From Armatimonadota bacterium (lineage in GTDB: Bacteria; Sysuimicrobiota; Sysuimicrobiia; Sysuimicrobiales; Humicultoraceae), in the NCBI GenBank assembly GCA_037443365.1, contig JBBIOM010000002.1, forward strand, positions 32,001 through 96,000: a stretch of DNA of 64,000 nucleotides. The letters are read 5' to 3'. Both the position numbers and the translations under genes were made by a program. This document shows positions 30,282 to 49,987 of this stretch, one piece after another. The notes under the pieces are model-generated. The model was not told the DNA's origin. It did not search any database and worked only from the letters and a program-made list of their open reading frames with translations. Numbering within the stretch: position 1 is the stretch's first letter; the number at the start of each line of letters is the position of its first letter.

Positions 30282-33176
30282 TCACGTCTCGCCTCCGGCA
30301 GTGCCAGCGCGTTCGGCGCGCAGGCGTTCCAGCCGCACCGCCGCGAACTTGAACTCAGGCGTCTTGGCACCGGCATCCAGGCCGTCGGCGTGTGTAAGCA
30401 GGTTGGCCGCGGCCTCGCGGAAGTGGAACGGCATGTAGATCATGCCCTGCGGCACGACATCCCCCACCCTTGCCTGGACGCGAACGCTGCCGCGCCGGCT
30501 GCTAACGAGGCACGCCTGACCATCGCGCACGCCCGCGCGTGCGGCATCCTCGGGGTGGATCTCGGCGTAGGCCCTCGGTTCGCGCCAGTCCAGGGGCGCG
30601 GCGCGCCGCGTCATGGGCCCGCCGTTGTAGTGGTACAGCATACGACCCGTGGAGAGCACGAGCGGGTAGGTCTGGTCGGTGGGCTCGAACGGGGGTGCCG
30701 GAGAGGTCGCGTGGAACCGCCCCCTGCCCCGCGAGAACTGCCCCTCGTGCAGGTACACCGTTCCAGGGTGCTCACTGGAGGTGCAAGGCCACTGCAGCCC
30801 CACCTTCTCAAGCCGATCGTGCGTGATGCCGCCGAAGATCGGGCAGAGCGCGGCCACCTCGCGCATGATCTCGGCCGCTGAGTTGTACTCCCAGCGCAGC
30901 GGGCGGCGCAGTCTCTTGCCCAACCGCTTCCCAACCTCGCAGAGAATTTCCCAATCGGGCCGGGCCTCGCCCGGGGCGGCCGCAAACGGGCGAACGAGCT
31001 GCACCCGCCGCTCAGTGTTGGTGAAGGTTCCGCTCTTCTCGGCGAACGACGCCGCGGGCAGGACCACGTGCGCCAGTTGGGCGGTCTCGGTCAGGAAGAT
31101 CTCCTGCACGACCAGGAACTCGAGCGAGCGCATGGCCCGCTCCATCAAGGTGGCATCGGGGTTGGTCATCATGAGGTTCTCGCCCATGATGTACATCGCC
31201 CGAATCCTCCCGTCGGCGGCGGCACGGATCATCTCGATGAAGGTAAGCCCGGGCCTATCGGGCAGGGTCAGTTCGCGGCCGGCCCTGGATCGGCGCTCCC
31301 CCCAGGCGCGCGCGAACTTGGCGCGCACCGCGGGGTCGGAGACCTGCTGGTAGCCGGGGTAGACGTTGGGCAGCGAGCCCATGTCGCAGCCACCCTGCAC
31401 GTTCACCTGCCCCCGCAGCGGGTTGACCCCGGTAGAGAGGCGGCCGATCTGCCCGGTCACCATGGCCAGGTTGGCCAGCGTCTTGACCAGCTCGGTGCCG
31501 TTGGAGCGTTCCGTTATGCCCATCCCGTAGAGGATCGTTGAAGCCCCGCGCCTCGTCGTGTTCGCGGCCTCTTCCGCAGTGACCCGGCGCAACCCCAGCG
31601 CATACATCCGGGCTGCCTCGACGATCTGCTCGGCGGGCACCCCGCAGGCCGCCGATGCGGCCTGCGGGGTCCAGGCCTCCAGGGATTGGGCAAACACGTC
31701 GAAGCCCTCAGTGCGGGCGGCGATGAACTCCCGGTCGAGCCAGCCGTTGGTCACAATCGCGTTCAGCATCCCCAGGTACAGGGCGTGGTCGGTGCCAGGT
31801 GACGGCCGGAGGTGCAACGCAGCGTGCCGGGTGAGACTGATCCTGCGAGGGTCAATCACTATCAGCGTCGCCCCACGCCTTGTTGCGCGGACCACCTCGT
31901 AGGAGATGACCGGGTGCGCCTCGCCGGTGTTGGAACCGGTCACCAGGATGCAATCGGCATCCCTGATCTCCCGGATGCTGTTGGTCATTGCTCCACTTCC
32001 GAAGGCGGCGGCCAGACCGGCCACCGAGGGAGCGTGTCAGACCCTGGCGCAGAGATCCACGTTGTTGGTGTCCATCACCCCGCGCACCAGTTTCTGGAAG
32101 GCGTAGTTGTCCTCGTTGGTGCACAAGGCCGAGCCGATCCCGGCAAAGGAGTCGGGGCCCGATTCCCTCACGATCGCGGCCAGACGATCGGCGACCAGGT
32201 CCAGGGCGACCTCCCAATCCACCTCGACGTGCGTCTCCCCGGCAGCCGGCGGGCGGCCCAGCGGCGAACGGCCCAGCGCCGCGGGCGGAGGCGTGTCCAC
32301 GAGTCCGACGGAGTGGGCCAGATCACGCCGGACCAGCGGTCGGCGCAGCCGGTCCGGGTGTCCCACGAACCCCAGGCCGAATCGGCCCTTGGTGCAGAGG
32401 AACTCGCCGTTGGCAGGCGCGCCGTAGCCCGAAACGGACACGGCCTCGCCCCCACGAGTGGCTACCTCGATGCCGCAGCCCGTGCCGCAGTACGGGCAGA
32501 CGGTACGGGTGCGCACAAGATCCCATTCGCGTCCCTTGCCGATGCGATCCACCGGTACCAACGCCGCGGTCGGGCAGACCTGCACGCAGTTGCCACAGAA
32601 GGTGCACGGTGTCTCCACCAGGGGCGCGTCGAACGGCGTAGCCACGAGCGCCCCAAACCCGCGCTGCGCCACCTCTATCGCGCTAGCCCCAACTACCTCG
32701 TCGCAGACCCGCACGCAGCGCGTGCAGAGAATGCAGTACTGGTGATCCCGGATGAGGAAGGCGTTCTCGTCCTGGTAGAGCGTGCGCGCGATCTCCTTCT
32801 CGTGGCTGCTCTCGGCGAGACCAAACTCGTAGGCGTAGCGCTGCAGATCGCAGGCGCCGGCCTTCTCGCAGATGACGCAGTTCAGGGGGTGGTCGGACAG
32901 CAGCAGGTCGAGGACCTCGCGACGCTGCGCCGTGAGTTGTTCGCTGTGCGTGGTGACCACCATGCCGTTCTTGACGGACAGCCCGCAGCTTGGCATGGCA
33001 GCAGCGTGCCCTTCGACCTCGACCAGGCACAGTCGACAGCCACCCCAGGCAGTCAACTCTGGATGGTCGCAGAGACGTGGGATGTCAAACCCCGCCGCGA
33101 GCGCAGCCTCCAGCACGGTGGCCCCTTCTCTCGCTTCCACCGTTCGTTCGTTGATCGTCAAGGTCACCATCGCCAT
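30282..33176 (-). CDS. fdhF: Selenocysteine-containing formate dehydrogenase alpha subunit (N-terminal NuoG-like Fe-S module + Mo/W-bisPGD domain), 964 aa
   Basis: ORF-track pieces 32037..33437 and 30282..32024 share a frame and are joined by TGA 32037-32039 in NVDLCARV-U-HAPSVAGL. Also CPYCGTGC, LCTKG, PLRGQ.NVQG.CDMG, GTFTNTERR, TPEFK. Confidence 0.95.
32006..32026 (-). promoter_or_regulatory. Bacterial SECIS element
   Basis: mRNA CGGUGGCC-GGUCU-GGCCGCCG hairpin (8-bp stem with one G-U) starting 10 nt after the in-frame UGA; loop resembles the E. coli fdhF SECIS. Confidence 0.85.
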
Positions 33177-34870
33177 CACCTCAATGCCTCGCACGCCCCG
33201 GCCTGACAGTGCCGGTCCTGAACATGGGCCGCGTACTCGTCTCGAAAGTAGCGAAGCGTTGTAACAACAGGATTCGGGGCCGTGAGCCCCAGGCCGCAAA
33301 GCGAGGAGGTGCGCACGGTCTGGGCTACCTGCTCCAGCCGGCCAATATCGTCGGGCCTGGCCTCGCCACTGGTGATTCGCGTGAGTATTGCCAGCATCTT
33401 GCGGGTCCCAACCCGACAGGGCACGCACTTGCCGCAAGACTCGTCCTGCGTGAAGCTCAAGAAGTAGCGCGCCAGATCAACCATGCAAGTGGTGTCGTCG
33501 GCGACGACAAGCCCACCCGAGCCCATGATGGCTCCGGTCGCCCCCAGATCCTCATAGTCCACAGGGGTGTCGAGCATGGAGGCAGGAAGGCACCCGCCAG
33601 AGGGTCCTCCTATTTGCACGGCCTTTATGCGGCGTCCTGGGCGCGGGCCGCCTCCGATGTTCTCCACCACGTGTCGTAGCGAAGTGCCAAGCGGCACCTC
33701 TACCAGGCCGGTGTTCTGGATGGCTCCGGTCAAGGCGAACACCTTGGTTCCCCCGCTGCCGTGTGTTCCGAGGCCGGCATACCAGTCTGGGCCCCGCATG
33801 ATGATAAGCGGGATCGTGGCAAGCGTCTCGACATTGTTGATGCAGGTCGGAAGACCCCAGAGCCCGAGCTCGCTGGGGTACGGAGGACGCATGTAAGGAA
33901 CGGCCCTTTCGCCCTGGATGGATCGGATCAGGGCGGTCTCCTCTCCGGACACAAAGGCCCCTGCGCCCTCGCGCAGGTGGATCTGGTACGCGAACCGAGT
34001 CCCCAAGACCGACGGGCCAAGCAATCCCCAGGCCGTTGCCTCCTCCACCGCTCGTCTCAGCCGCCGCACGGCCAGGGGATACTCGTGCCGTACATACACG
34101 TACCCCTCCGAAGCACCGACGGCATACCCCGCAAGGAGCATTCCCTCGATGACCGCATGGGGATCTCCTTCCATGATGCTCCGGTCCATGAAGGCGCCAG
34201 GGTCACCCTCGTCCCCGTTGCAGATGATGTACTTCCGCGCTCCGGGCTGTTGACGGGTCAGTTCCCACTTCGTGCCGGTCATGAAACCGGCGCCGCCACG
34301 TCCGCGCAGGCGTGATCTGGAAACCGCTCGAATGACTTCTTCTGGGCTCATGCGAAAGAGCGCGCGGTCCAGGGCGGAGTAGCCGCCCCTGGCGAAGTAG
34401 GTCCGTATGTCCTCGGGATCTACAACCCCGCAGTTGTGCAGCGTCATTCGCCTCTGGTGGTGATAGAACGGGATGTGGCGCTCCAGGAGGTGCGCCTGGC
34501 CGGTCAGAGGGTCGTGGAAGATCAGATCCTCCGGCGGGTCTCGGCCGGCGTCAAGTCGCGCAACGAGGTCGGGGACACGCTCGGGGCGAACTCCAGTAAA
34601 CAGGAACCCGTGTGGTTCAGACCGCACCAACGGGCCTCGAGCACAGAAGCCGTGGCATCCGGTGATGCTTACGGGCGAGGAGGTTGCCCTGCCCAGGGCT
34701 TCGGCAACCTGCAGGCTGCCGTTGGATACGCATCCCGTTCCGGCGCACACCTGGAACCGCCGTGGCGTTGCGGCCACCATCTCGGCAAACAGGCGTTCAG
34801 CCCGCAGTACGGCCCCCTCCCCTCTCAAGGGCGGCGCTATGGTGGGGGCGTGACTTCCGGTCTCGTTCAT
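33176..34870 (-). CDS. NuoF/HydB-like NADH/FMN-binding subunit of the FDH complex
   Basis: N-terminal CAGTGC...GCHGFC, LRGRGGAGF, CNGDEGDPGAFMDR, GEETAL, NNVET, GGPSGG, ESCGKCVPCR, SLCGLG. Confidence 0.93.
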   Translation of the reverse strand: MNETGSHAPTIAPPLRGEGAVLRAERLFAEMVAATPRRFQVCAGTGCVSNGSLQVAEALGRATSSPVSITGCHGFCARGPLVRSEPHGFLFTGVRPERVPDLVARLDAGRDPPEDLIFHDPLTGQAHLLERHIPFYHHQRRMTLHNCGVVDPEDIRTYFARGGYSALDRALFRMSPEEVIRAVSRSRLRGRGGAGFMTGTKWELTRQQPGARKYIICNGDEGDPGAFMDRSIMEGDPHAVIEGMLLAGYAVGASEGYVYVRHEYPLAVRRLRRAVEEATAWGLLGPSVLGTRFAYQIHLREGAGAFVSGEETALIRSIQGERAVPYMRPPYPSELGLWGLPTCINNVETLATIPLIIMRGPDWYAGLGTHGSGGTKVFALTGAIQNTGLVEVPLGTSLRHVVENIGGGPRPGRRIKAVQIGGPSGGCLPASMLDTPVDYEDLGATGAIMGSGGLVVADDTTCMVDLARYFLSFTQDESCGKCVPCRVGTRKMLAILTRITSGEARPDDIGRLEQVAQTVRTSSLCGLGLTAPNPVVTTLRYFRDEYAAHVQDRHCQAGACEALR

Positions 34871-36989: not shown

Positions 36990-38354
36990 TCAGATCTTGC
37001 CCGCAGAGCTGGTCAGCCCCCGCATCTGAAGCAGCGGGCGCGGATCGGTGATCAGCCCCCCGAGGCCTGCGGCCTTCTCCTGGAGACCGAACGCGATCGC
37101 CATCAATTGCGTGAAGTAGAACGCCGGCATGGGCGGAAGCCCGGCCGCGCGTGCCGCCTCCTCCTGCCTGGCGTCGAGGTTGTTGTGGCACAGCGGGCAG
37201 GCCACCGCGAGCGCCTCGGCGCCGGCCGCCTGAGCGTCGCGCAGGATGCGGCCGGTCAACTCGACCACGAGGTCCGGGCGCACTACCGCGTGGCCGGCCC
37301 CGCAGCACTCGGTCTTGTGCGACCAGGCCACCGGAACCCCGCCCAGCGCCGAGATCAACCTGTCCATCTCCATCGGATTTTCGGGCCGCGCCGCACCCGT
37401 GACCGCGGGCGGCCGCGTGAGCAGGCAGCCGTAGTAGCAGGCCACCCGGAGCCCGCGCAGCGGGTTACGCGCCTGCGCGCGGATTCCCTCGAGCCCGCCT
37501 TCGAGCAGCGTGTGCAGGATGTGCTGTACGCGCAGCCCTTCGGGCGACCGGTCAGGAGCGTCCACCTGCGCGTGACGCAGGCGGGAGAAGCAGGCGGCGC
37601 AGGGCGCCGTCACCGCGGTGTGCCCCGCCCGCGCCGCCAGGCTCAGGTTGGCCAGCGGCAGTTCCAGCGCGAGATCCGCGGAGGTCTGGTGTGCCGCCGT
37701 CGCCCCGCAGCACCGCCACGCTTCGATCTCACGCAGCCGCACCCCGAGGGCCGCGGCCACGCCGCGCGTCGAGGCATCGTATTCCCTGGCGCTGGCGTGC
37801 AGCGCGCAGCCGGGGTAGTAGGCGATCTCGCCCGGCTCCGCCCGCCGGCCCGAACGGCGGTTCGGGAGGCCGGGGATCAGCCGCAGCTTGCCGGCGCGGA
37901 ACAGCCTGAGCGCGAACCTGCTCTGGCGGAGCGGCTGGCGCATCCGCATGTTCACCTCCAGGCCTACCCCCGCCTCGAAGAGGCGCCCGAAGAGACGGAT
38001 GCTGCGGATCGCCGCCTGCGTGAAGACCGGCGCCTCGGGCACGCGCGCCGGGATGCGCCGCGATGAAGCCACGATCCTGAGCGCGTCCATGACGCGGGCC
38101 ACGTCGATCCCCTGGGGGCAGCGAGCCGTACAGGCCTGGCAGGAGGCGCACAGCCAGAAGGTGTTGCCCCGCAGCAGCCGATCGTCGAAGCCGAGCTGCA
38201 GGGCGCGCATGGCGGCATGAGGCGCCAGATCCATCTCGGCGGCCAGCGGGCATCCGCTCGTGCACACCTTGCACTGGAAGCACAGTGCGGGGTCCTGGCC
38301 GCTCTCCTGCGCGACCTCCCGTGCCAGCATCGCGCGCGTCGCTGTCTGTTCCAT
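36990..38354 (-). CDS. Fused HdrC-HdrB protein
   Basis: N-terminal CFQCKVCTSGCP and WLCASCQACTARCP, continuing in frame into YYPGC, W.CCGA, PCAAC, YYGC, ECCG, ACPLC, YFTQL. Start ATG 38354. Confidence 0.9.
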   Translation of the reverse strand: MEQTATRAMLAREVAQESGQDPALCFQCKVCTSGCPLAAEMDLAPHAAMRALQLGFDDRLLRGNTFWLCASCQACTARCPQGIDVARVMDALRIVASSRRIPARVPEAPVFTQAAIRSIRLFGRLFEAGVGLEVNMRMRQPLRQSRFALRLFRAGKLRLIPGLPNRRSGRRAEPGEIAYYPGCALHASAREYDASTRGVAAALGVRLREIEAWRCCGATAAHQTSADLALELPLANLSLAARAGHTAVTAPCAACFSRLRHAQVDAPDRSPEGLRVQHILHTLLEGGLEGIRAQARNPLRGLRVACYYGCLLTRPPAVTGAARPENPMEMDRLISALGGVPVAWSHKTECCGAGHAVVRPDLVVELTGRILRDAQAAGAEALAVACPLCHNNLDARQEEAARAAGLPPMPAFYFTQLMAIAFGLQEKAAGLGGLITDPRPLLQMRGLTSSAGKI

Positions 38355-38824
38355 CACGGGGCATCTCCGATCTTCGCCCGCCGAAGCGGCGTCGGTCCCA
38401 ACGCCGTGATGCGCTCGGTCATCTCCCGGGCTATCTCGGCGAACCGCGGGCCCTGGGCCGACGACAGGTTGAACATCTCCAGGCGCGCCCCCCCGATGCC
38501 GGCCTCGTCGAGACGCTCCTTGAGGTACCGCACACGCGCCTTGGCATGGTAGTTGCCGGCCTGGTAGTGGCACTGCCCCTCCAGGCACCCGGCCACGAAC
38601 ACCCCGTCCGCTCCTGCCTCGAAGGCGCGCAGGATGTAGATCGCGTCAATCCCGCCGGTGCAGGGCAGCAGCACGACCTTCACATTGGGCGGATACGGCA
38701 GGCGCATCACGCCTGCAAGGTCTGCCGCCGCGTAGGCGCAGTAGAAGCAGCAGAAGGCCACTATCTCAACCGAGGCCTTGGACGCCTCCGATTGCGCTGG
38801 GGCCACGGTAAGGTCAGCCGACAC
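38354..38824 (-). CDS. mvhD: MvhD-family [2Fe-2S] subunit (second copy)
   Basis: AFCCFYCAY..ADLAG, LPCTG, GADGV.VAGC..GQCHY. Confidence 0.92.
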   Translation of the reverse strand: MSADLTVAPAQSEASKASVEIVAFCCFYCAYAAADLAGVMRLPYPPNVKVVLLPCTGGIDAIYILRAFEAGADGVFVAGCLEGQCHYQAGNYHAKARVRYLKERLDEAGIGGARLEMFNLSSAQGPRFAEIAREMTERITALGPTPLRRAKIGDAP

Positions 38825-41800
38825 GCGCCCCCTCCATCTCGCCCAGCAGCGCCTCGATCTTGGCGATCATCTGATCGCGCGAGTAGTGCCCCAGGCTGAG
38901 CGCGCTGCCCGGGCACACAGACACGCAAAGGCCGCATCCCTGGCAGCGTGTGGGTTCGACGACGGCTATTCCGTCGCCGTCGAACGATATGGCGTCGTAG
39001 GCGCAGACCCGGAGGCATGTCAGGCACGTCGTGCAGCGGTCGCGATCCACCTGGGTGACGACGCCTCCGACCTCCAGGCTATCACGCCACAGCAGGGTGC
39101 TTGCCCTGGCCGCCGATGCCAGGGACTGGGCGATCGCCTCGTCCAGCAACTTGGGGTAGTGCGCGCCGCCGCAGAGGAACAGGCCTTCGCTGGCGAAGTC
39201 CGCCGGGCGCAGCTTGACGTGGGCTTCCAGGAAGAAGCCGTCGGCCGACGCCGGCACCTTGAAGATCTCCGTCAGGCCGCAGGCGCCTTCTGAGGGCACC
39301 TGAGCCGGCGCCACCACCATCAGCCCGGCATCGAGCGTGATCTCCTCGCCGAGCGCCTGGTCCCGCAGGGTAACGCGGACGGCCTCTGGAGTGCGCGTGA
39401 CTTGCGGGGGCTCATCCGGCGAGTGGCGGAACACCACGACCCCGGCCTGCCGCGCCTGCGTGAAGAGCACCTCGGATGTCCCGTAGGTCCGGATCTCGCG
39501 CGCGATGACCGTGACCGGGACCTCGGGATGGGCCCGTTTGAACGCCAGCGCGGCGGCCATGGACTGGGCGCAGCACGTGCGGCTGCAGTAGAAGGGCATG
39601 CGGTCCCAGGGGCCCGCGCAGAGCAACATGACCACCGAGGCCGGGACCTCAACGGGCGCCACAACCGGAGTGAGACGCGCCTCAAACTCTGAGAGCGTTA
39701 TCACGCGCGCATCCTCGCCGACCCCGTAGGCGGCGGGCTTCCACTCCTGCAGGCCGGTGGCGATGACGGTAACCCCGTGCGAGATGGTGTGCTCGCCGTC
39801 CGGGCCTGCCACGGTTGTCTCGAAGTTGCCGACCGTGCCGTGGGAGGACCCGATCGTGCAGCCGGTCAATACGCGCACGCGGGGATGGCTGGTTGCGCGT
39901 TCGGCCAGCTCCCTCAGCAACTCCGCGGGCGCGGTCCCCCCCCCCAGGCCAGAAGCGGTGAACGCAGCCGGCCGCCAAGCGTCTGCGACCGCTCCACCAG
40001 CGTGACCGGGAATCCCTGCTCGGCCAGGTTGAGGCTGGCGGTCAGGCCCGCGACGCCTCCGCCGATGACAAGCGCTTCGCGCCGCATCGGCACCAGCACC
40101 TTGTGAAGCGGCGACAGGCGCGCGGCGCGAGCGACGGCCGCCGTGATCAGGGCCTGCGCCTTCTCCGTGGCGCCAGCGGGATCATCGCGGTGAACCCAGC
40201 TACACTGATCGCGGATGTTGGCCATCTCGAACAGGTAGGGGTTGAGCCCGGCCTCGCGCAGCGTCTCGCGGAAGATGGGTTCGTGTGTGCGCGGGGTGCA
40301 GCTGGCCACGACCACCCTGTTCAGGTGCGCTTCGGCCACGGCCTCCTTGATGCGTATCAGGGTGTCGGCCGAGCAGGTGTAGAGGGACGTCTCGGCCAGG
40401 ACCACGCCCGGCAACGTCTTGGCATGCGCGGCCAGGCCGGCCACGTCCACGACGCCGGCGATGTTCGATCCGCAGTGGCACACGAACACCCCTATGCGCG
40501 GCTCCGGATCCAACAGCATCTCAGGAGGATAGACCTTGGCTGAGATCTGGGTCCCGCGGGCCGACCCGATGATGGCCATCGCCGCGGCGGCCGCGCCGCT
40601 GCCGTCCGTGACTGAATCTGGAATGTCCCTGGGTCCGCGGAATCCGCCGGCCACGAACACGCCGGGGCGGCTGGCCTGCATAGGCGCAGAGGGCACCGTG
40701 GCGGCGAACCCGTGCTCGTCGAGGGCTATGCGGGCGGCGCAGGCAAGGGCTGCGGCACCCTTGGGCGGGGTCAGGCCCACGGCCAGCACAACCAGGTCGG
40801 CCTGCTCCTCGCGCACTGCGCCGTTCTCCTCGACGCGGAAGTGAAGCGACCGGGTCTGTGCGTCTTCCCGAAGGGCCGCCACGCGCGTGCGCACGAACCG
40901 GATCTGTTCGCGGCTGGCCCGTTCGACGTAGGCGTCGAACCCCTTGCCGAAGGCGCGCATGTCCGCGTAGTAGACAGTGCATTCGGTGCCCGGAGCGTGC
41001 TCGCGGGCGAGTATCGCTTCCTTGGTTGCGTACATGCAGCACACCGAGGAGCAGTACCGGTTCTGCTGATCGCGCGAGCCCACGCACTGCAGGAACGCTA
41101 TGCGCTTGGGTTCGGCGCCGTCGGAGGGACGAGCAACGTGTCCCTGCGTCGGCCCCGACGCCGACAGGAGCCGCTCGAACTGCGGGCCGGTGAGGACGTT
41201 CGGGAAGCGGCCCGCGCCGTAGGCGTCGGCAAGCGCGGCGTCGAACGGCTCGATGCCAGGAGCCAGGATCACGGCGCCGACATTCAGCGTCTCCTCCCGT
41301 TCGGTCTCGGCATGGTTGATCGCCTCACGGCGGCATGCCTGCACGCAGGCCAGGCACTCGGCGCACACGCCGCAGGACAGACAGCGCGCAGCCTCAAACC
41401 GCGCCTCTTCTTCGGTCAGCCCCTCGTCCACCTCGATGAACGAGGCGCGCCTGACCTCTGCCGGGAGTTCGTGAACGCCTTGGCGCGGCTGCGGCCGTAT
41501 CTGACCGCGCGCCAGGCGGTCCTCGACCTCCTCCAGCGTGAGTCTGGCGACCTGGGGTTGCGGGTCGGCCTGCAGGAACGTTCCGCGCAGGTACGCGTGA
41601 ATGCCTTGTGCGGCCCGGCGGCCCGCGGCGATGGCGTCCACGATGTAGGCCGTGCCAGTTGCCAGGTCCCCTCCGGCGAACAAACCGGGGTAGCCCGTGG
41701 ACTGCGACTCCGCGTCCACCTGCAGCGCCCCCCAGGGCGTGGTTACGAGGCCGGGCAGATCAGAGAAGATCTCGTTCTGCGGGGCCAGGCCTATCGCGAA

Positions 41801-43984
41801 GACAATCGTGTCCGCCTCTATCAGGTGCTCGCTACCCTCGATGAGTTCGAGGTGCAGCCGCCGGTTCTCGTCGAAGTGCATGGAGCGCACCCCCCGGCAC
41901 TCCATGCCCGCGGCGCGGCCGTCCCGTTCCACGACGCGGACGAACGACGTGGAGGGATACACCCGCACGCCCTCTTCTTCGGCCGCTGCCACCTCCCAGG
42001 GGTGAGCCGGCATGGCCCCGCGCGCCTCGGGACATGCCAGGAGCACCTCGGCGCCGAGCCGCACGCATGTTCGGGCCACATCGATGCCGACGTTGCCGCC
42101 TCCCAGCACGAGCACCCGCCGACCCAGAGAGACCGGTTGCCCCAGCCGGGCGTTCTGCAGAACGTCGGTGCTGACCAGGACGCCCGGCAGATCGGCCCCA
42201 GGGATGGGGAGCTTGCGGGCCCGGTGGGTTCCGGTGGCCAGGAAGATCGCGCTGTACCCTTGCGCGAATAGCTCGCGCACGTGCGAGACGCGGCTGGAGG
42301 TGCGTATCTCGACGCCCAAGGCAGCGATTGCCGCGACCTCGCGCTCAACTATGCTCGCCGGCAACCTGTGCTCCGGGATGCCGACGCGCATCATGCCTCC
42401 CGGAACAGGCAGCGCCTCGTGGACGGTCACGCGGTAGCCCAGCACGGCCAGATCCCGGGCCGCCGTCAGCCCGGCGGGGCCTGAGCCTACAACCGCCACG
42501 CGTTCGGGGTGCGCCGGCTCCACCTGCGCCGGAGGCTCGCCCGGCCGCGCATATGCCCAGTCGGCCACGAACCGCTTGAGCGCAGCGATGTTCACGGCCC
42601 CGTCAACGAGCGAACGCGAGCAGGCGTCCTCGCACCGGTGGTTGCACACTCGGCCGCAGATCCCGGGAAACGGGTTCTCCATCTGGATCACGCGGAACGC
42701 CTCTTCGTAGCGTCCCTGGGCCACCAGCGCCACGTACCCCTGCGCCCTCTGGTGAATGGGACAGGCGTCGCGGCAAGGTGCACGCCCCCGCTTGTCAATG
42801 GCGTATGCGCCTGGAACGGCCTGGGCATAGGAGCGGTATATGGCACTGCGCGCGGCCAGCCCCGCGTTGAACTCGCTGGGCACGCCCACAGGGCACGCCG
42901 CGGCGCAGTCACCGCAGCCTGTGCAGCGGAGCGGATCCACGAAGCGGGGGCGCTGCCGTATGGTGGCGGCGAAGTCCCCGGCGCTCCCCTCCAGACTCTC
43001 CAGCTCGGCCAGCGTGTGGATCTCGATGTTAGGATGCAGCCTGACACCCGACAGCTTGGGCGACAGGATGCACATCGCGCAGTCGTTCGTGGGGAAGGTC
43101 TTGTCGAGCGTGGCCATGCGACCGCCTATGGCTGGGCCGCGCTCGACCAGGTGCACCTTGATGCCAGCGTCCGCCAGATCGAGCGCAGCCTGGATTCCCG
43201 CGATCCCGCCGCCGACCACCACGGCCGCGCCCACCACGCCGTCGCCGGTCTCCTCGGGAGGCCCGGCCGGTCTTGCCTCCTCGATCGCGGTGGCCACGCG
43301 GGCTGCCCCCCCGGGGGCCGGGCCTTCGTCGAGGTCGTCGCGCGCGGCCGCGGGCACTCGCACCATGCGGTCCAGCAGCTCGATCTGATCGGCCAGCCGC
43401 TGGCGGCAGCGCACAAGGATGTGCCGCTGATCATCGGTGAGATCGCCGGCCGTTCCCGCCAGCATCGCCTCCAGGTAGCCGGCCACCCTGGCGGCGGGAG
43501 ACCGCAGGTCGTACGTGGCCACCGCCTGCATCTGGGTCAGTCGGGCTCGCACCTGCGCCATGCGCGATTCGATGAGGTCCACTAGACCGGCCATTATGGG
43601 ATACCCGATCTCCCAGTCCAGCGATATCAACCTGCGCAGAACCGGGCCGCTGATGGCCACCAGAACCGTGGGCTCGACGCTGACCGCAGACATCGTCAGC
43701 ACAAACGGCGGCACAAGGGCAGACCATCCGAGGCTCTCGCCCGCCCCGAGCACGGACACGACGACCGACCTGGGCAGGTCCCCTTCCTGCTCCGGTGTTC
43801 GCATCTCCAGGGCCACCCGGCCCGTGTGGATCACGAAGAAGTCGCGGGCCTCGTCCCCTTCAGAGAAGATGCGCTCCCCCGGCTGGAAGGAGACAACGGT
43901 GCCCAGCGAGGCCACCAGGTCTCGGGCCGATGGGCTAAGCCCTGCGAGAAGGGCGCACCGGCCCATGGCTTCACGCTGGATCAT
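38814..43984 (-). CDS. hdrA: Giant HdrA/HdrL (cNMP + degenerate HisKA + HdrA with GltD-like NAD(P)H module + second HdrA unit), frameshifted at a G10 tract
   Basis: ORF 39914..43984: GGGIAG, DKTFPTNDCAMC, APCRDACP, CGRVC...CE.AC, VGSGPAG, GGGNVG.D, EAARCLSC, CVGSRD, YCSSVCC, IGVFVCHCG, NIRDQCSWVH, GGGVAG. ORF 38814..39920 continues with YCSRTCC, GFFLEAHVKLRP and 2x[4Fe-4S]. One extra G at 39936-39945 joins them into 1723 aa. Confidence 0.88.
39936..39945 (-). repeat. Poly-G homopolymer (G10 on coding strand) at the hdrA frameshift
   Basis: Ten consecutive C on the + strand, located where the reading frame switches. Confidence 0.95.
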
Positions 43985-45167
43985 CGGCAGATGTCTCCCC
44001 CTGCCCCACCGGCGGCGAATCGCCGGGGGGGAGTTCGACGGCGAGGGCCCGGGGTATCGAGAGCGTGAAAACCGCGCCGCTTGTCTCTCCTGGAGGCGGG
44101 CTCTCTGCCCAGATCTGACCGCGGTGGGCCTCGACGATCCTCTTCACGAGGGACAAACCCAGCCCCAACCCCTTCGACTGGGCCATCTGCCCCCTGTAGA
44201 ACTCGTCGAAGATGCGGGGCAGATCGGACGGCGCTATCCCAGCGCCGTTGTCGCGCACCTGCACCCGGATCTCATCTCCCCGGTCCAGGGCGGACACGAC
44301 GACTTCTCCGCCGGAGGGCGTAAACTTCACGGCGTTGTCCAGGAGGTTGGTAATGGCTTCCTGCATGCGCAGCGGCGCCATCAAGAGCGACGGCATGCCC
44401 CGAGGCACCAGCGCCTCCAGGCGCACTCCCTTTGCCCGGGCCGCGGCCGCCACGTTCTCCACGGCCTTCTCAATGATATCCTGCATGGATGCGACGCCCA
44501 GCTCCGCGGAGAAGTCGCCGGTCTCGATCCGGGAGACCCGCAGAAGGCTGTTGATGAGCTCGATCAGCTCCTGCACACGGATGCTGCACCGCTCCAACAT
44601 CTCTCGCTGCCGGTCAGCGACCTCCCCGGCGTAGCCGCCCAGCATCACCTGAAGGTAGCTCTCCACGGCCGCCAGGGGCGCCTTCAGTTCGTGTGACACC
44701 ATTGCGATGACGAAGCCCAGCTTGGCCCTCGCCTCCTGGAGGCGGCTTCCCACCAGCTGGGCCAGGCCGCGCATCAGGAGGGCCCCGGCCCGAGGGTCCT
44801 CGGCGATCAGTCGTTCCAGCATCTCGCGCTCGAATGCCACGACCGTCGTGGGCTGAATTGCCACGGCCGACATGGTGCGCGTGTGAGGAGGCACGAGCGC
44901 GGACCAGCCGAAGCAGTCGGGGGGACCAAGCACCGCGGCGAATGTGCGCCGCTCGCCCGCCTCGGACCTGCCGATCTGCAGGTCCATCTCGAGGGCGACG
45001 CGTCCCCGCTCAATGATGCACAGGTGTGTGGCGCCCTCCCCCTCCTCGAAGATCCGCTGCCCGGGCTCGAACGATCGCTGCTCACCCATAGCCGCCAGGC
45101 GGCGCAGAAGCGCCACGGGCAGGTCCTTGAACAGGGACGAGCGCTCCAGGGCCGCCTGGCTGGCCAT
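43971..45167 (-). CDS. Cytoplasmic histidine kinase with N-terminal cNMP-binding (Crp-like) domain
   Basis: SLFKDL, FEPGQRIFEEGE, GRV, FGWSAL; H-box SHELKAPL; NAVKFT, DNGAGI, IFDEFY, GLGLGL; no TM helix. Confidence 0.92.
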   Translation of the reverse strand: MASQAALERSSLFKDLPVALLRRLAAMGEQRSFEPGQRIFEEGEGATHLCIIERGRVALEMDLQIGRSEAGERRTFAAVLGPPDCFGWSALVPPHTRTMSAVAIQPTTVVAFEREMLERLIAEDPRAGALLMRGLAQLVGSRLQEARAKLGFVIAMVSHELKAPLAAVESYLQVMLGGYAGEVADRQREMLERCSIRVQELIELINSLLRVSRIETGDFSAELGVASMQDIIEKAVENVAAAARAKGVRLEALVPRGMPSLLMAPLRMQEAITNLLDNAVKFTPSGGEVVVSALDRGDEIRVQVRDNGAGIAPSDLPRIFDEFYRGQMAQSKGLGLGLSLVKRIVEAHRGQIWAESPPPGETSGAVFTLSIPRALAVELPPGDSPPVGQGETSADDPA

Positions 45168-45168
45168 G

Positions 45169-46053
45169 CTACTCCACTCCCGGAGCCGCCAGGCCGCCGG
45201 CCTCGAGCACGCGCGGCAGCAGGTGATCCCATCCCATGGCCATCAGGTGGATGCCCTGGCACAGCGGCCGCAGTTCCCGGATCAGCCCGGCGGCCACGCC
45301 CACGCTGGCCTCCTGGCGGTCCTTGGCTGTCTCCATGATCTCGATGAGGCGGCCGGGAACGTGCACGCCCGGGACATTCCGGTTCATGAACCGGGCCATA
45401 CCGGCGGACTTCAGCATGATGATGCCTGCCAGTACCGGCTTGCCCACGGGCCGGGCGGCTTCCATGAAGCGGGCGAAGCCGTCCGGGTCGAAGATGGCCT
45501 GGGTCTGGAAGAAGTCGGCGCCGGCCTGAGCCTTCTTCGCCATCTTGAGCAGTTGGGGCTCAACCGGATCCGCGCCCGGGCTGACGACCGCGCCCAGGAG
45601 GAACTCGGGGGCGCCGTCCAGTTGCTTCCCCGCCATGTCCTGCCCCTGCTCCAGCCCGACCGCGGCGCGCAGCAGGGAAACCGAGTCCAGGTCGAACACG
45701 GGCTTGGCCTGCGGGTGGTCACCAAGCTTCACGTGGTCTCCCGTAAGGCACAGCACGTTCTCGATGCCCAGCGCCGCCGCGCTCAGGAGATCCGACTGCA
45801 GCGCAATCCGGTTTCTGTCGCGGCAGGTGACCTGGAAGATGGGCTCGAGGCCCCGCTCCCGAAGCATGTGGCAGAGCACCAGCGAACCCAGGCGCATCAC
45901 CGAGCTCTGCTGGTCGGTGACGTTGAACGCCTGCACCCGTCCCCGCAGGCGCTCGGCTTCCTGAATGGCTCCTGCCACGTTGATTCCCTTGGGCGGGGAG
46001 GCCTCGGCCGTCACCACGAACCGGCCTCCGGTCAGGGCCTCTCGCAGGGTCAT
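45169..46053 (-). CDS. metF: Methylene-THF reductase catalytic subunit (copy 2)
   Basis: VTAE.SPPKG, NVTD, TCRDRNRIALQSD, LCLTGDH, VFDLDS, AGADFFQTQ, GIHLM. Confidence 0.93.
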   Translation of the reverse strand: MTLREALTGGRFVVTAEASPPKGINVAGAIQEAERLRGRVQAFNVTDQQSSVMRLGSLVLCHMLRERGLEPIFQVTCRDRNRIALQSDLLSAAALGIENVLCLTGDHVKLGDHPQAKPVFDLDSVSLLRAAVGLEQGQDMAGKQLDGAPEFLLGAVVSPGADPVEPQLLKMAKKAQAGADFFQTQAIFDPDGFARFMEAARPVGKPVLAGIIMLKSAGMARFMNRNVPGVHVPGRLIEIMETAKDRQEASVGVAAGLIRELRPLCQGIHLMAMGWDHLLPRVLEAGGLAAPGVE

Positions 46054-46475
46054 GGCGTCTCAGAGCCTCCCTCGGACCGGCCGCGGCGTGCCAGCAGCTT
46101 CTCCACCCTTTCTAGGAGCAGGCCCGGAGGAGCGGGCTTGTCGAGATAGTCCTCTGCCTCCAGGCTGAGCCCTGCGCTGACCGGAAGGCCGGACTCCCCG
46201 TGGCGCTCGGCGAACGAGGTGAGCATGATGACAGGCACCGAGGAGAGCACCGGGTCGCGCTTCAGCTCCTCGCAGACCGTGAAGCCGTCCTTGAACGGCA
46301 TGATCACGTCCAGGATGATCAGGTCGGGCGGATCCTCGCGCGCCAGACGCAGCCCCTCAACGCCATCCAGCGCCGCGGTCACCCGATAGTTGCGGCTCTC
46401 CAGCACCGTCCGGGTGGTCTCGACCAGGTCCGGGTCATCGTCAATGAGCAGAATGCGCTCCTGGGTCTTAGCCAA
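46050..46475 (-). CDS. Stand-alone response regulator (REC only)
   Basis: ILLIDDD, PDLIILDVIMP..DG, MLTS, DKP. TTG start at 46475 with GAGGTG upstream. Confidence 0.9.
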   Translation of the reverse strand: MAKTQERILLIDDDPDLVETTRTVLESRNYRVTAALDGVEGLRLAREDPPDLIILDVIMPFKDGFTVCEELKRDPVLSSVPVIMLTSFAERHGESGLPVSAGLSLEAEDYLDKPAPPGLLLERVEKLLARRGRSEGGSETP

Positions 46476-46479
46476 GGTC

Positions 46480-46896
46480 CTACACCTCTCCGGGGTTGCC
46501 CGATCGCTTGCCGCGCCTGTCCAGCACCTTGCGGACACGATGCAGCAGATCCACCGGCCGCACCGGCTTCTCGACATAGTCGTCCACGTCCATGGCCAGC
46601 CCGGCCTCGAGTTCGTACCTGCGCCGGCTGGCCTCTTCGCCCACGGCAGAGAAGATCACAATCGGAATGGTCGCCCAGCGGGGTTTCTCCTTCAGGGCCC
46701 GCACCACGGCGTATCCGTCCATCCTGGGCATCATCATGTCCAGGATGATCAGGTCGGGGGCCTCCCGGCGTATGCACTCGAGCCCCTGCTCGCCGTCGGG
46801 GGCGGTCTCGACACTGTAGCCAGCAGCCTCCAGTACCATCCGGACCGCCACGGTGATATCCTGATCGTCGTCCACCACCAGGATCCGAGGTTGCAT
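46480..46896 (-). CDS. Stand-alone response regulator (REC only)
   Basis: ILVVDDD, PDLIILDMMMP.MDG, FSA, EKP. Confidence 0.92.
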   Translation of the reverse strand: MQPRILVVDDDQDITVAVRMVLEAAGYSVETAPDGEQGLECIRREAPDLIILDMMMPRMDGYAVVRALKEKPRWATIPIVIFSAVGEEASRRRYELEAGLAMDVDDYVEKPVRPVDLLHRVRKVLDRRGKRSGNPGEV

Positions 46897-46928
46897 TCAG
46901 GCCAGCCCTCCTTCTCACGCCTGTTGCG

Positions 46929-47846
46929 TCATATCAGCGGCCGAGGCAGAAGCCCGGCCCTCTCCGCCAGAACGGGGACGACCTCTTCCCACCCCACGGC
47001 CATGATGTGCACACCCCGCACGCCTGGTATGTCGCGCACGGCGTCAATGATGTCCACCGCGATGGCCATTCCCTCGGCCTTGGGATCCGAGGCATCTTCC
47101 ATGCGCGAGACCACGCCGTCAGGAACGACAATGCCGGACACGTAGTCCCGCATGTAGCGCGCCATACCAACCGATTTCAGGGGCACGATTCCGGCCAGGA
47201 TCGCCGTCTTCTCGTGCAGCCCCCGCGCCCTGACCTGGGCCATCCAGCGCGCGAAGATCTCGAGATCATATACGGCCTGCGTCTGTATGAAGCTGGCGCC
47301 CGCGCGCACCTTCTTCGCCAGGCGCACCACCCGGTATGGAAGCGGGTCGGCGAACGGGTTGGCCGCGGCCCCGATGAACATCGAAACGTCGCCGGTGAAC
47401 TCATCGCCACTCTGGAACCTGCGCGCATCGCGCATGCCGGCCAGCACCTGTATCAGCTGGATCGAGTCGAGATCGAAGACGTTCTTGGCCCCCGGGTGGT
47501 TGCCGAACTGCTGGTGGTCCCCGCTCAGGCACAGGAAGTTGCGCACTCCGGCCCCCACGGCACCCAACACGTCCGACTGCAGCGCCAGGCGGTTCCGGTC
47601 GCGGCACGTCATCTGCATCACGGGGTCCAGACCCATGCGGCGCAGATGGATCGCGCAGGCCAGGCTGGACATGCGCACGATCGCGGTCTGGTTGTCGGTC
47701 AGATTGATGGCGTCACAGCAGTGCCGGAGGATCTCGGCCTTGCGCTCCACGACGCCCAGGTTCGTGCCCTTGGGCGGGCCCAGCTCGGCGGTCACAGCGA
47801 ACCGCCCAGCGGCCAGCACGACCTCCAGGTTGCTGCCCGCGGGCAT
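46929..47846 (-). CDS. metF: Methylene-THF reductase catalytic subunit (copy 1)
   Basis: VTAELGPPKG, NLTDNQ, TCRDRNRLALQSD, LCLSGDH, VFDLDS, AGASFIQTQ, GVHIM. Confidence 0.93.
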   Translation of the reverse strand: MPAGSNLEVVLAAGRFAVTAELGPPKGTNLGVVERKAEILRHCCDAINLTDNQTAIVRMSSLACAIHLRRMGLDPVMQMTCRDRNRLALQSDVLGAVGAGVRNFLCLSGDHQQFGNHPGAKNVFDLDSIQLIQVLAGMRDARRFQSGDEFTGDVSMFIGAAANPFADPLPYRVVRLAKKVRAGASFIQTQAVYDLEIFARWMAQVRARGLHEKTAILAGIVPLKSVGMARYMRDYVSGIVVPDGVVSRMEDASDPKAEGMAIAVDIIDAVRDIPGVRGVHIMAVGWEEVVPVLAERAGLLPRPLI

Positions 47847-47851
47847 GGCCG

Positions 47852-48529
47852 CTACACCTCCTCCTCGACCATCTCGCGCAGGTCAGGCCGCGTGATGCGG
47901 CGCGGCCCGCCGGAGTGGCTCGCCTTCCAGTCCCGGGCCGGGATGATCTCCTCGAGCTGGTCCAGGCGTCCCTGCGCTTCCAGGCGCTCGTGGATCAGAA
48001 CCCAGGCGCAGGGATTGTCTACCGACAGCTCGCAGTGCCCATCCTGGGGCCCTCCGCAGGGGCCGTTCAGGAGGCTCTTGGCGCACCTGGCCACCGGACA
48101 GATCCCTCCGGTGCGGTGCAGGAGGCAATCACCGCAGGCCATGCACCGCTCACCCCATATCCCAGGGGCCTCGGTCAGCCCCATGAAGGCGGTGTTGAGC
48201 CCAGGCAGCGCGATCACACCTCCGTAGCGCTCCCCTATTCCCTGCACACCCACCCCGCATCCCAGGGACAGCACGGCATCGGCCCGGCGCACCGCCTCGC
48301 CGACCTGATCCAGGAACTCCCACTCGCACTGCCGCTGAACCACGGCCTCCCCGATCTCGACCTCTGGGCCCAGCACCGAGCGCAGCGCGGTGGCCACCAC
48401 GGCGACTTCCTTCTCTCCCCCGGCAAAGCAGACAGTCGTGCACGTTCCGCAGCCGAGCACCAGGAGGCGGCGGAACCCGCTCACCATCTGCCGGATCTCG
48501 TCCAGGGGCTTCTGTTGTGCAACAATCAC
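47852..48529 (-). CDS. metV: Methylene-THF reductase Fe-S subunit MetV (copy 1)
   Basis: MIVAQQKP, GCGTC..VC..GG, RQCE, GCGVGVQ, C..CG.C....GGICP..RC.K.LLNGPCGG, CE...CAW. Confidence 0.92.
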   Translation of the reverse strand: MIVAQQKPLDEIRQMVSGFRRLLVLGCGTCTTVCFAGGEKEVAVVATALRSVLGPEVEIGEAVVQRQCEWEFLDQVGEAVRRADAVLSLGCGVGVQGIGERYGGVIALPGLNTAFMGLTEAPGIWGERCMACGDCLLHRTGGICPVARCAKSLLNGPCGGPQDGHCELSVDNPCAWVLIHERLEAQGRLDQLEEIIPARDWKASHSGGPRRITRPDLREMVEEEV

Positions 48530-48545
48530 GGCCAGACCGCCTTCC

Positions 48546-49415
48546 CTATACGGCCAGCGCTTGGATCACCGGCCGGACCTCCACCAGGTGCCTTCCGAAC
48601 CCCAAGCGTCGCGGACTCGCTCCCAGCGCGAGCGCGGTCAGTTGAGTGAAGAACACCACCGGGAGGGGACGCTCGAACCCCGCCCTGGCGGACGTGGCGC
48701 CCTGCAGCAGATCCAGGTTGAGCTGGCACAGCGGACAGGCAGTGGCCAAGCAGTCGGCGCCCGCTCGGTGGGCCTGCTCCAAGATGCGGCCAACCAGATC
48801 CGCGGCAAGATCGGGCGCCGTGGCGGCCAGGCTGGCGCCACAGCACCAGGTCCTCCCCTGCCACTCGACCACGTCGGCCCCACACGATCCGAGCACGCGC
48901 TCCATGATCCTCGGGTTCTCCGCATCGTCTATCCCACCACACCTGGGCACGCGCACGAGCAGGCAGCCGTAATAGCACGCCACCTTCACTCCTGCCAGAG
49001 ACCGCCGGACCCGCGCGGAGAGGTCGATCTCGTCCAGGACCGAGAGCAGGTGCCGCACCCGGACCCCACCGCCGTAGGCGAGGCCCGCCTGCGCGGCTGC
49101 CTGCGCCGCCTCCGCCGAGGCGCCAAGCTCGTGCTCTGCCTGAACCAGCCTGTGGTGACAGGCGGCGCACGCGGTCAGCACGTCGGTCCCGCGGGCCTGG
49201 GCAATCGCTAGGTTGCGGGCGGGCAGCAGGACCGCCAGGTCCGCGTCCACGAAGTGGGCCGAGCTGGCGCCGCAGCAGTTCCAATCCGGCAGTTCCTTCA
49301 CCTGCATCCCCAGGGCGCGCAGCGTCTCACGCACGGAATCCAGATAGGGGGAGCCGGTGCTCTGCAATGAACAGCCCGGGTACAAGGCGAGCGGCCTGGC
49401 CGGCGCATTCTGCAT
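48546..49415 (-). CDS. hdrB: Heterodisulfide reductase subunit B
   Basis: LYPGCSL, DWNCCGA, ACAAC, YYGC, CCGA, ACPLCQLNLD, FFTQL. Start ATG 49415. Confidence 0.93.
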   Translation of the reverse strand: MQNAPARPLALYPGCSLQSTGSPYLDSVRETLRALGMQVKELPDWNCCGASSAHFVDADLAVLLPARNLAIAQARGTDVLTACAACHHRLVQAEHELGASAEAAQAAAQAGLAYGGGVRVRHLLSVLDEIDLSARVRRSLAGVKVACYYGCLLVRVPRCGGIDDAENPRIMERVLGSCGADVVEWQGRTWCCGASLAATAPDLAADLVGRILEQAHRAGADCLATACPLCQLNLDLLQGATSARAGFERPLPVVFFTQLTALALGASPRRLGFGRHLVEVRPVIQALAV

Positions 49416-49987
49416 CAGCGCCCACCCCCCTTGCCGGTCGTCCGGAACAGGCGGCGGACCTCTTTGCGCCCCCGCACGAGGTGGGGCAGCAGCGCAAGCC
49501 GGCGGTGCCGCACCAGCGCCAGGCCCGTGGCCAGGTCCTGCCGGAGGCGTCCCTGCTGCAGGCTGTGCCCGGCCGAGAGCAGACCCTCGTGGGCCCGACC
49601 GAACATCCACACGGTGCGCAGGAACCACCGGTGGAATCCGAGGATGCCCGCCCTGGGGGGAGGCCCTCCCCTGGCCAGGGAGGCCTGCCGCACCGCGTCC
49701 ATCACCCGGGCGACGTCAATCCCGTTCGGGCACCGGATGGCGCAGGTCTCGCACGCCACGCACAGGTAGGGCGCCGCGGCTTCGAGGACACGCTCCCGGA
49801 GGCCCAACTGCACCGCCTTCATCAGGCGGCTCGGAAGGATGTCCATCGCATGAGCCAGCGGACAGCTCCCGGTGCAGACCCCGCACCCGTAGCAGAGCCG
49901 CACGCGCTCCCCGCTGGCCGCCTCTATGGCCAGCGGCCAGGAGGAATCCCGCGGGGACGGCTGCGTGGGCGCCTCATGCTGGGGCAT
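49415..49987 (-). CDS. hdrC: Heterodisulfide reductase subunit C
   Basis: CYGCGVCTGSCP, CVACETCAIRCP. Confidence 0.9.
   Translation of the reverse strand: MPQHEAPTQPSPRDSSWPLAIEAASGERVRLCYGCGVCTGSCPLAHAMDILPSRLMKAVQLGLRERVLEAAAPYLCVACETCAIRCPNGIDVARVMDAVRQASLARGGPPPRAGILGFHRWFLRTVWMFGRAHEGLLSAGHSLQQGRLRQDLATGLALVRHRRLALLPHLVRGRKEVRRLFRTTGKGGGR

Follow-up and report, generated by a model that had tools for sequence, protein, structure and literature searches.

A kinase-derived module at the head of an HdrA-like flavoenzyme

The window analysed here, a stretch of 64,000 nucleotides (nt) from contig JBBIOM010000002.1 of assembly GCA_037443365.1, is a Wood-Ljungdahl methyl-branch locus in which a giant HdrA-like protein (HdrL) begins with a copy of the sensor and of the dimerization and histidine phosphotransfer (DHp) region of the histidine kinase encoded next to it. 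All coordinates are positions in this window, and the kinase, HdrL, two receivers (RR1 and RR2) and the methylene-tetrahydrofolate (THF) reductase MetF1 are all encoded on its minus strand. The kinase (43971..45167, 398 amino acids (aa)) consists, according to Pfam, of a cNMP-binding-type domain (residues 31-124), a HisKA domain (152-217) with the phospho-acceptor His159 (codon 44691-44693) and a HATPase_c domain (265-373), and it belongs to a family of ~390-aa cNMP-HisKA-HATPase kinases. The open reading frame (ORF) of HdrL (39914..43984) codes for 1356 aa as read in the window, and its start overlaps the end of the kinase gene by 14 nt (43971-43984).

When HdrL residues 1-237 were compared by BLASTP with kinase residues 1-235, 93 of 240 positions were identical (39%) and 59% were positive, with 8 gap positions (E = 9e-43). 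The almost gap-free alignment of both N-termini, its matching blocks and the gene overlap, all described in an earlier sequence-only reading of this DNA, were thus confirmed with correct coordinates. The N-terminal module copied from the kinase sensor and DHp comprises residues 1-215 (43340..43984) and is supported by BLASTP, an AlphaFold2 model and a phylogenetic tree. The model, built on a 37-row alignment with a mean predicted local distance difference test score (pLDDT) of 90.6, shows a barrel, a continuous helix, a loop and a second helix. The β-barrel is of the CRP/PKA type (residues 28-112, 43649..43903), contains the pocket cassette GWSALVPPFVLTMSA and is recognized by Pfam PF00027 with 51.1 bits (cut-off 27.5), a family found above the cut-off in all six modules scanned (46-53 bits). 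DSSP assigns residues 124-175 of the model (43460..43615) to one continuous helix, in which a CRP C-helix runs into DHp helix 1, and DHp helix 2 spans residues 184-208 (43361..43435), with the invariant alignment columns QRHIL..CR.RL. In a Foldseek comparison with the PDB, the best matches of the module were GlxR, CRP and the cyclic nucleotide-binding (CNB) domains of PKA, with E-values down to 5e-11.

At E <= 0.01, Pfam detected cNMP_binding in both proteins, and HisKA and HATPase_c in the kinase only. Tested on the module alone, HisKA matched residues 149-207 with 16.6 bits, under its gathering cut-off of 26.9 bits, and in two of five orthologue modules it reached 18.7-24.8 bits, still under the cut-off. 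Alignment and model together nevertheless point to the hairpin being a DHp homologous to HisKA. No HATPase_c was found by Pfam in protein P0001 or in the six modules scanned, in which the hairpin is followed by a linker and a Rossmann fold. The linker (residues 213-250, 43235..43348) is rich in P, A, G and E, unconserved and apparently flexible (pLDDT below 50 from residue 212 on); its length, measurable in 18 of 19 rows, varies between 22 and 51 residues, and its composition is 20% P, 19% A and 18% G. As the earlier reading had proposed, a linker of this type and the FAD domain of HdrA, with its Rossmann motif from residue ~254, stand in the place of the kinase ATPase domain.

The body of HdrL (39914..43234) contains, by Pfam, an HdrA Rossmann fold with Fer4, a GltD-like NAD(P)H-binding insert at about residues 400-800 (Fer4_20 and Pyr_redox_2, residues 401-788), and then the remaining part of HdrA and the beginning of a second HdrA unit. 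On the orthologue P0004, all NCBIfam matches stayed under their cut-offs, with 905 bits for HdrA2 (cut-off 1100), 494 bits for a GltD-type model (cut-off 516) and a match to an HdrA model also. By its architecture, in which HdrA and an NAD(P)H-binding GltD-like part are joined in one chain, the enzyme can be assigned to the HdrL type, defined in Desulfobacterium autotrophicum HRM2 as a large fusion of HdrA and glutamate synthase (PMC2702500). Like the HRM2 proteins, as far as the available text of that source describes them, it would be a single soluble polypeptide with Hdr-type partners, a likeness of architecture. In contrast, the HRM2 genes are followed by mvhD, some lie beside dsr, and the same text describes no sensor or DHp (PMC2702500), whereas the neighbours here are metF and a gene for an HdrD-like protein.

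The reading frame of HdrL is shifted in the window by a run of ten G (39936..39945), after which the ORF stops at 39914. The sequence continues in another frame (38814..39935) with the second HdrA unit and two C-terminal 4Fe-4S motifs, collinear with the single ORFs of its relatives; the 368-aa continuation ORF itself spans 38814..39920 and carries a Pfam Fer4 match at its residues 290-341. The orthologues of HdrL are single ORFs of 1695-1738 aa, and in congeners the site reads TGGGGCGGCG, which is 2 nt shorter and has its G-run interrupted; the frame would hold with G8 or G11. A Logan contig from the probable source run reproduced the G10 at a depth of 32, the only run to do so, but because this second contig comes from the same data, it does not distinguish a true frameshift from a miscalled homopolymer.

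Distribution, selection and origin of the fusion

The fusion was found in 11 of 94 genomes scanned of Ca. Sysuimicrobiota (CSP1-3), where the module heads an open frame of at least 1409 aa. In the genus of the window (g1) it is present in 7 of 8 genomes, including the window, and in genus g3 in 4 of 6; by NCBI taxonomy, the relatives belong to the family Humicultoraceae. A search of NCBI, JGI, ENA and Logan with query residues 1-245, restricted to long proteins, yielded 11 further protein clusters at 90% identity (P0003-P0013), in which the module is 60-84% identical to that of the window and in every one of which PF00027 occurs together with the HdrA and GltD families; their automatic JGI names record both halves of the fusion. 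Seven metagenome loci, representing four distinct lineages, carry it as well. The fusion is restricted to two genera of a single uncultured family. Of the top 120 homologues found for the HdrL body, PF00027 was listed only in 12, which are the fused proteins; the other 108 lack it, measure 1207-1604 aa (most of them ~1480-1600) and come in many cases from Chloroflexota. When a representative protein library was queried with the module, no long HdrA fusion appeared among the best 150 of 3195 matches (E <= 1e-3), and as the fused cluster is probably represented there by a plain HdrL, the spread is not measurable in this way. The ESM Atlas returned just a cluster of cNMP plus HisKA fragments at 0.90, which added nothing.

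In the source genome (2.2 Mb in 69 contigs, 97.7% complete), the module sequence occurs just twice, once in the kinase and once in HdrL. Contigs of the window stretch were found in four sequencing runs of one study, none of them an RNA run, with the whole stretch in the probable source run only. From that run, a 10,648-nt contig made by another assembler spans 40214-45300 with zero differences, so that the continuity across ~43250-43400, on which the earlier reading depended, is supported; in a second sample of that study, a 253-nt contig has the identical Tyr codon discussed below.

Ratios of nonsynonymous to synonymous substitution rates (dN/dS) were calculated by the Nei-Gojobori method for 13 genome pairs, 11 of which were usable for the linker. 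They were 0.07-0.30 for the barrel, 0.07-0.37 for the DHp-like part, 0.09-0.14 for the enzyme body and 0.35-2.94 for the linker. The module is under purifying selection and neutral drift is rejected, with the linker about neutral. A fusion peculiar to this assembly or drifting neutrally, which would have refuted the earlier reading, is thus contradicted both by its recurrence in independent assemblies and by the selection acting on both domains, and the fusion is well supported as a selected feature.

The origin of the module was followed in a maximum-likelihood tree of 46 sensor plus DHp segments, which included 19 HdrL modules, the neighbour kinases and 19 cNMP-HisKA-HATPase representatives from a library of 1.8 billion proteins. 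The 19 modules are monophyletic (100/100) on a long stem (0.99), and their clade is sister (94/91) to that of the neighbour kinases (100/99). All but one of the 19 kinase representatives fall outside both clades; the remaining one (P0018) lies inside the kinase clade beside G027. Close relatives show all the states: plain enzyme, kinase with plain enzyme, kinase with fused enzyme, and fused enzyme alone. In genome G034, RR2, RR1, MetF and kinase precede a plain HdrL with a leader of 35 residues at its start, and in genus g5 the kinase is absent and MetF is followed by a plain HdrL. The simplest reading of these data would be a single duplication of the 5' two-thirds of the kinase gene onto the N-terminus of HdrL. 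In genome G034, a member of another family, the kinase (L021/L045) groups with that of G008 (g3; L017/L040) at 94/82, against taxonomy, and the locus may have moved between lineages.

The full two-component system, kinase plus both receivers, was found in G000, G027-G031, G033, G008 and the metagenome locus L077, and the kinase adjoins the fused HdrL in 8 of the 11 fused genomes of the phylum scan. An apparent truncation of the kinase in G033 (L002/L012, ~2214-2330 by tblastn) was ruled out, as it proved to be a scaffold gap of Ns. The earlier reading had raised the question whether homologues always neighbour a cNMP kinase. They do not: the kinase and receivers are absent as a unit from the locus in three genomes (G004, G006 and G007) and two metagenome lineages (L079/L080 and L081/L082), where MetF1 abuts the fused HdrL. 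Between 1.3 and 11.5 kb of upstream sequence was examined at these loci, with less than 3 kb in L079/L080, where the contigs end. No kinase-type copy was found elsewhere in the three genomes, which are 84-96% complete, and none of them has an RR2 orthologue, the best match being 44-47% identical compared with 74% in G008. The module retains a dN/dS of 0.07-0.30 in these kinase-less genomes, and its DHp sequence is nearly unchanged with or without the two-component system. The maintenance of the module is, on this comparison of sequences, independent of the kinase.

At the position of the phospho-acceptor, the HdrL of the window has Tyr158 (codon TAC, 43511..43513), aligned to His159 of the kinase. 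The earlier reading had raised the question whether homologues keep this change; the pairing of residues and the codons are correct, but the change is not a family trait. The 19 module rows have His (7), Tyr (2), Phe (6) or Ser (4), compared with His in 27 of 27 kinases, and Tyr occurs only in the window, where it is unique within g1, and in P0013. The codon is CAC or CAT (His) in six congeners, TTC (Phe) in G008 and G006, and TCC (Ser) in G004 and G007. In the other clade, a TAC-like Tyr at the base (P0013) is followed by TTC and then by TCC, and by this order of codons His was lost at least twice, each time by single-nucleotide steps. G008, which keeps the two-component system and has Phe, shows that the loss of His preceded that of the system. 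The acceptor His is dispensable in the module.

Possible roles of the module

Conservation was distributed unequally between pocket and DHp. The cassette GWSA[LV]VPP..T.SA is among the best-conserved segments of the module (mean conservation 0.84, compared with 0.76-0.89 in the other seven regions), and its region, residues 81-100, has nine positions that are conserved and identical in module and kinase, and none that is conserved but different. Of 12 such conserved-but-different sites in the module, nine lie in the DHp (K161R, L164A, A166R, Q172E, M189I, S194R, V197L, L200Q and I204L), four of them hydrophobic swaps (L164A, M189I, V197L and I204L). Polar residues R161, R166, E172, Q186, R187, H188, R194, R196 and Q200 are invariant over all faces of the helices. 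DHp helix 1 is nearly invariant across the kinase family, whereas that of the module differs. This pattern suggests that the function of the pocket was kept, and that the DHp surface acquired a new specificity which was afterwards fixed. Two further DHp residues stand out: Cys193 (43406-43408, in the 'RC' motif of helix 2) is invariant in the modules and neighbour kinases and occurs in 3 of 18 other kinase representatives, and His188 (43421-43423, in 'QRHIL') is invariant in the modules, with Glu in the kinases. A thiol switch at Cys193 or an alternative functional His at position 188 is conceivable.

The reading that we tentatively prefer, though at somewhat less than even odds, is that the module is an autonomous, flexibly tethered unit for sensing and for dimerisation or docking on HdrL. 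The copy of sensor and DHp hairpin on the enzyme has lost the ATPase domain and no longer depends on the His. The C-helix and DHp bundle would pair two HdrL chains or offer a re-specified docking face, and the retained pocket would bind a small ligand, probably other than cAMP or cGMP and likely to be that of the kinase as well. The state of the ligand would then directly control assembly or partner docking of a complex of MetF, HdrL and HdrD, and where the two-component system is kept, the kinase would report the same ligand in parallel through the two output-less receivers. An unconserved and floppy tether cannot carry helical signals of the kinase type, so rigid allosteric coupling is disfavoured and the module would act as a tethered unit. 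The alternative proposal of the earlier reading, a ligand at the cNMP-like pocket that gates the enzyme, survives in this form: it is plausible because the cassette is the segment best shared with the kinase, but the residues for cyclic nucleotides are missing and the linker argues against rigid coupling.

Several points weigh against this preference. In an HMMER alignment with PKA RI-alpha, the Glu and Arg of the cassette, which contact the cyclic nucleotide in CNB domains, correspond to Trp87 and Leu96 of the module; binding of cAMP or cGMP is unlikely because both are replaced, and the pocket could be empty. The cassette Arg is retained by six g1 kinases only and is not general across the kinase family. 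A canonical H-box, HD[LV]R[SA]PA, is present in 6 of 7 g1 species, all of which have the kinase and both receivers, and an autonomous module leaves it unexplained; retention of His by chance is likely, given a module divergence of only 3-21% within g1. His is absent from all kinase-less loci (0 of 5 lineages), a pattern that goes back to one or two evolutionary events. The backbone of the HdrL-body tree is poorly resolved, with the fused proteins as one group at 67/83, so that the polarity of gain and loss depends on the 108 plain outgroup proteins; since this tree does not fix the place of the plain HdrL of g5 and G034 relative to the fused clade, either of them may have lost the module secondarily. 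The window copy itself may not be fully functional because its gene is frameshifted. What the sequences establish is the architecture, the origin, the selection and the independence from the kinase; dimerisation of the module, binding of a ligand and any effect on the enzyme are inferred.

An unlikely alternative, for species that have the kinase, is that the DHp of HdrL docks a phosphorylated output-less receiver, and that where His is kept, in g1, it serves as a phosphotransfer station (from kinase to receiver to the His of HdrL, or in trans), acting directly on the enzyme. The same operon encodes two stand-alone receivers whose acidic pockets are intact and which lack output domains, the H-box of most g1 species is canonical, and the invariant polar residues around the DHp helices suggest a partner interface. 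There is also a precedent in DivL of Caulobacter, in which Tyr550 replaces His: it binds DivK~P through the docking face of its DHp, and this binding persists in a Y550F form and is tuned by the sensor domains of DivL (PMC4211667). As far as the available text of that source goes, DivL has no kinase activity, a binding and sensing surface that was repurposed, N-terminal sensors and single-domain receivers in its circuit (PMC4211667), and the Tyr-bearing DHp of the window would resemble it in these respects. Unlike the module, which has lost the catalytic and ATP-binding (CA) domain and is tethered to a metabolic flavoenzyme, DivL is described in that text as keeping its CA domain and as a free signalling protein; in addition, Tyr is found in only 2 of 19 module rows, and receiver binding by the module is hypothetical.

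The same DHp surface is, however, conserved in genomes without kinase and receivers, G008 has the two-component system and Phe at the acceptor site, no ATPase domain is present in cis, and the His of g1 is compatible with retention by chance. Moreover, module helix 1 differs from that of the kinase at +3, +6, +8 and +14 from the His, so that binding of the same receiver is not obvious. A predicted complex of two module copies (1-212) with RR2 scored 0.00 against a mark of 0.32, which weighs neither way. The more specific proposal, that the His-bearing DHp of g1 takes an active part in a phosphorelay of four components (kinase, two receivers and enzyme DHp) and the Tyr variant of the window a DivL-like sensor of phosphorylated receiver, is more doubtful still. 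If true, phosphorylation would switch a flavin-based MetF-HdrL complex of the Wood-Ljungdahl pathway directly, without transcription.

It is likewise improbable that the module is a structural relic that serves only dimerisation or stability, with neither ligand nor signal. HdrA proteins work as dimers, and the missing contacts for cyclic nucleotides, the dispensable His and the floppy linker would all be compatible with such a role. However, the pocket cassette ranks with the best-conserved parts of the module and is common to the kinase, a mere dimeriser would not need a 120-residue barrel held at a dN/dS of 0.07-0.30, and thousands of plain HdrL proteins manage without the module.

The proposal of the earlier reading, that the dead module heterodimerises with the neighbour kinase through C-helix and DHp so that the state of the enzyme sets the output of the kinase, or the reverse, now seems quite doubtful. 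Module and kinase are closest paralogues, their overlapping genes are probably co-translated, they are adjacent in most fused genomes of the scan and in L077, and the pocket cassette is common to both. But docking of the kinase onto the enzyme is weakened by the purifying selection on the module where no kinase is present, by the variable His position and by the concentration of conserved differences in the DHp, which would re-specify or insulate the pairing surface, with helix 1 almost invariant in the kinase family and different in the module. Lastly, a chimeric assembly or a mis-called start joining two genes can be regarded as refuted, even for a metagenome-assembled draft genome whose whole stretch was found only in its probable source run, because the same single ORF with the module from residue 1 occurs in 10 other genomes, 11 protein clusters and 7 metagenome loci, the contig of the second assembler crosses the junction unchanged, and N-terminal residues are conserved from position 1.

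The module has in common with the ~390-aa kinases the pocket motif GWSA, a C-helix continuous with the DHp and a hairpin of the pattern AG..QR..L.RC, and differs from them in having no ATPase domain, a variable His, nine DHp positions fixed differently and an enzyme as its C-terminal partner. In DHp-only or CA-degenerate phosphotransferases such as Spo0B and ChpT, a DHp bundle without autokinase activity needs its His and is not fused to an enzyme, and in the known fusions of CNB domains to enzymes, the CNB is an allosteric switch that keeps its cNMP-binding residues and has no DHp. The module resembles the former in its DHp without autokinase and the latter in its tethering to an enzyme, and is unlike them in its dispensable His and missing cNMP residues. 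Its parts (CNB-type barrel, DHp, pseudo-kinase and HdrL) are known. In agreement with the earlier reading, which knew of no HdrA of this architecture, a literature search, partly judged by title and the start of the abstract, found no description of their combination, in which a sensor plus DHp of kinase origin, lacking the ATPase domain, heads a metabolic flavoenzyme.

To our knowledge, next to nothing has been described of how HdrA-type flavoenzymes, or the methylene-THF reductase step of the Wood-Ljungdahl pathway, are controlled after translation, and the electron partners of MetF-type reductases are reportedly still debated. The fusion amounts to a natural experiment, in which a lineage grafted the sensor and pairing domains of an operon kinase onto an enzyme and maintained them by selection, even after the loss of the kinase. 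The ligand of the shared pocket could reveal the metabolite that signals the state of this step of the pathway, and the module offers a compact system for the repurposing of a DHp outside phosphotransfer.

The surrounding Wood-Ljungdahl locus

The gene order in the window is formate dehydrogenase, a NuoF-like subunit, FolD, FchA, an HdrD-like CCG protein, HdrL, kinase and MetF1, followed by RR1 and RR2, MetF2, MetV, an HdrB/C-like protein and an HdrA-MvhD fusion. MetF1 (45169..46053; Pfam MTHFR, E 2e-37) lies directly upstream of kinase and HdrL and is syntenic across all related loci. Both receivers are stand-alone proteins. RR2 (46480..46896, 138 aa) matches Response_reg with an E of 2e-26 and conserves the acidic pocket and Lys. 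RR1 (46050..46577) matches the same Pfam family at residues 42-158 and has no output domain. As listed, its ORF of 175 aa runs 98 nt into the end of RR2. The receiver begins at residue ~39, and no orthologue matches ahead of this point, so that translation probably starts inside the listed ORF, near 46463, leaving 46463-46577 as an extra stretch. The receivers are bracketed by the two MetF paralogues, which are 43-44% identical (45169-47846).

The MetF2-MetV-HdrBC-HdrA/MvhD module next door (46929-51881) is of the type of the acetogen MetFV-HdrCBA-MvhD systems, and the locus shares with those systems the link between MetF and HdrA-type flavoproteins in the Wood-Ljungdahl pathway. We know of no such system in which an N-terminal module of kinase origin, or a two-component system between the metF genes, has been reported. 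The two-component system was seen only where a MetF2-MetV-HdrBC-HdrA/MvhD module adjoins (window, L040, L044, L076 and L077); the contig of G034 is too short to tell. The paper on the phylum reports that the family Humicultoraceae acquired the Wood-Ljungdahl pathway (PMC11604079); a term search of its main text found no Hdr, MetF or histidine kinase, and its supplements may list such genes.

The HdrD-like subunit 3' of HdrL (36990..38588, minus strand) contains two CCG domains and Fer4 (4Fe-4S) by Pfam, with HdrB- and HdrC-like matches in NCBIfam. No MvhD gene directly follows HdrL in the window: a 226-nt gap to the HdrD-like gene (38589-38813) contains no MvhD match, and the MvhD domain is instead fused to the neighbouring HdrA (49974-51881). 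Likewise, the other kinase-bearing loci have just a ~230-250-nt gap 3' of HdrL, with MvhD fused to the adjoining HdrA. In kinase-less fused loci, a small MvhD-like ORF lies between HdrL and the HdrD-like gene (L041, 16707-17015; L042, 17284-17592; L004, 15225-15599; L080, 6587-6889; L081, 12006-12305).

A single in-frame TGA (32037-32039) separates the two ORFs of the formate dehydrogenase, 32037..33437 and 30282..32024. Its surroundings read NNVDLCARV_HAPSVAGL, and CARV_HAPS is the usual site of the selenocysteine or cysteine ligand, so that the enzyme is probably a selenoprotein, read through as a single chain of 1051 aa.

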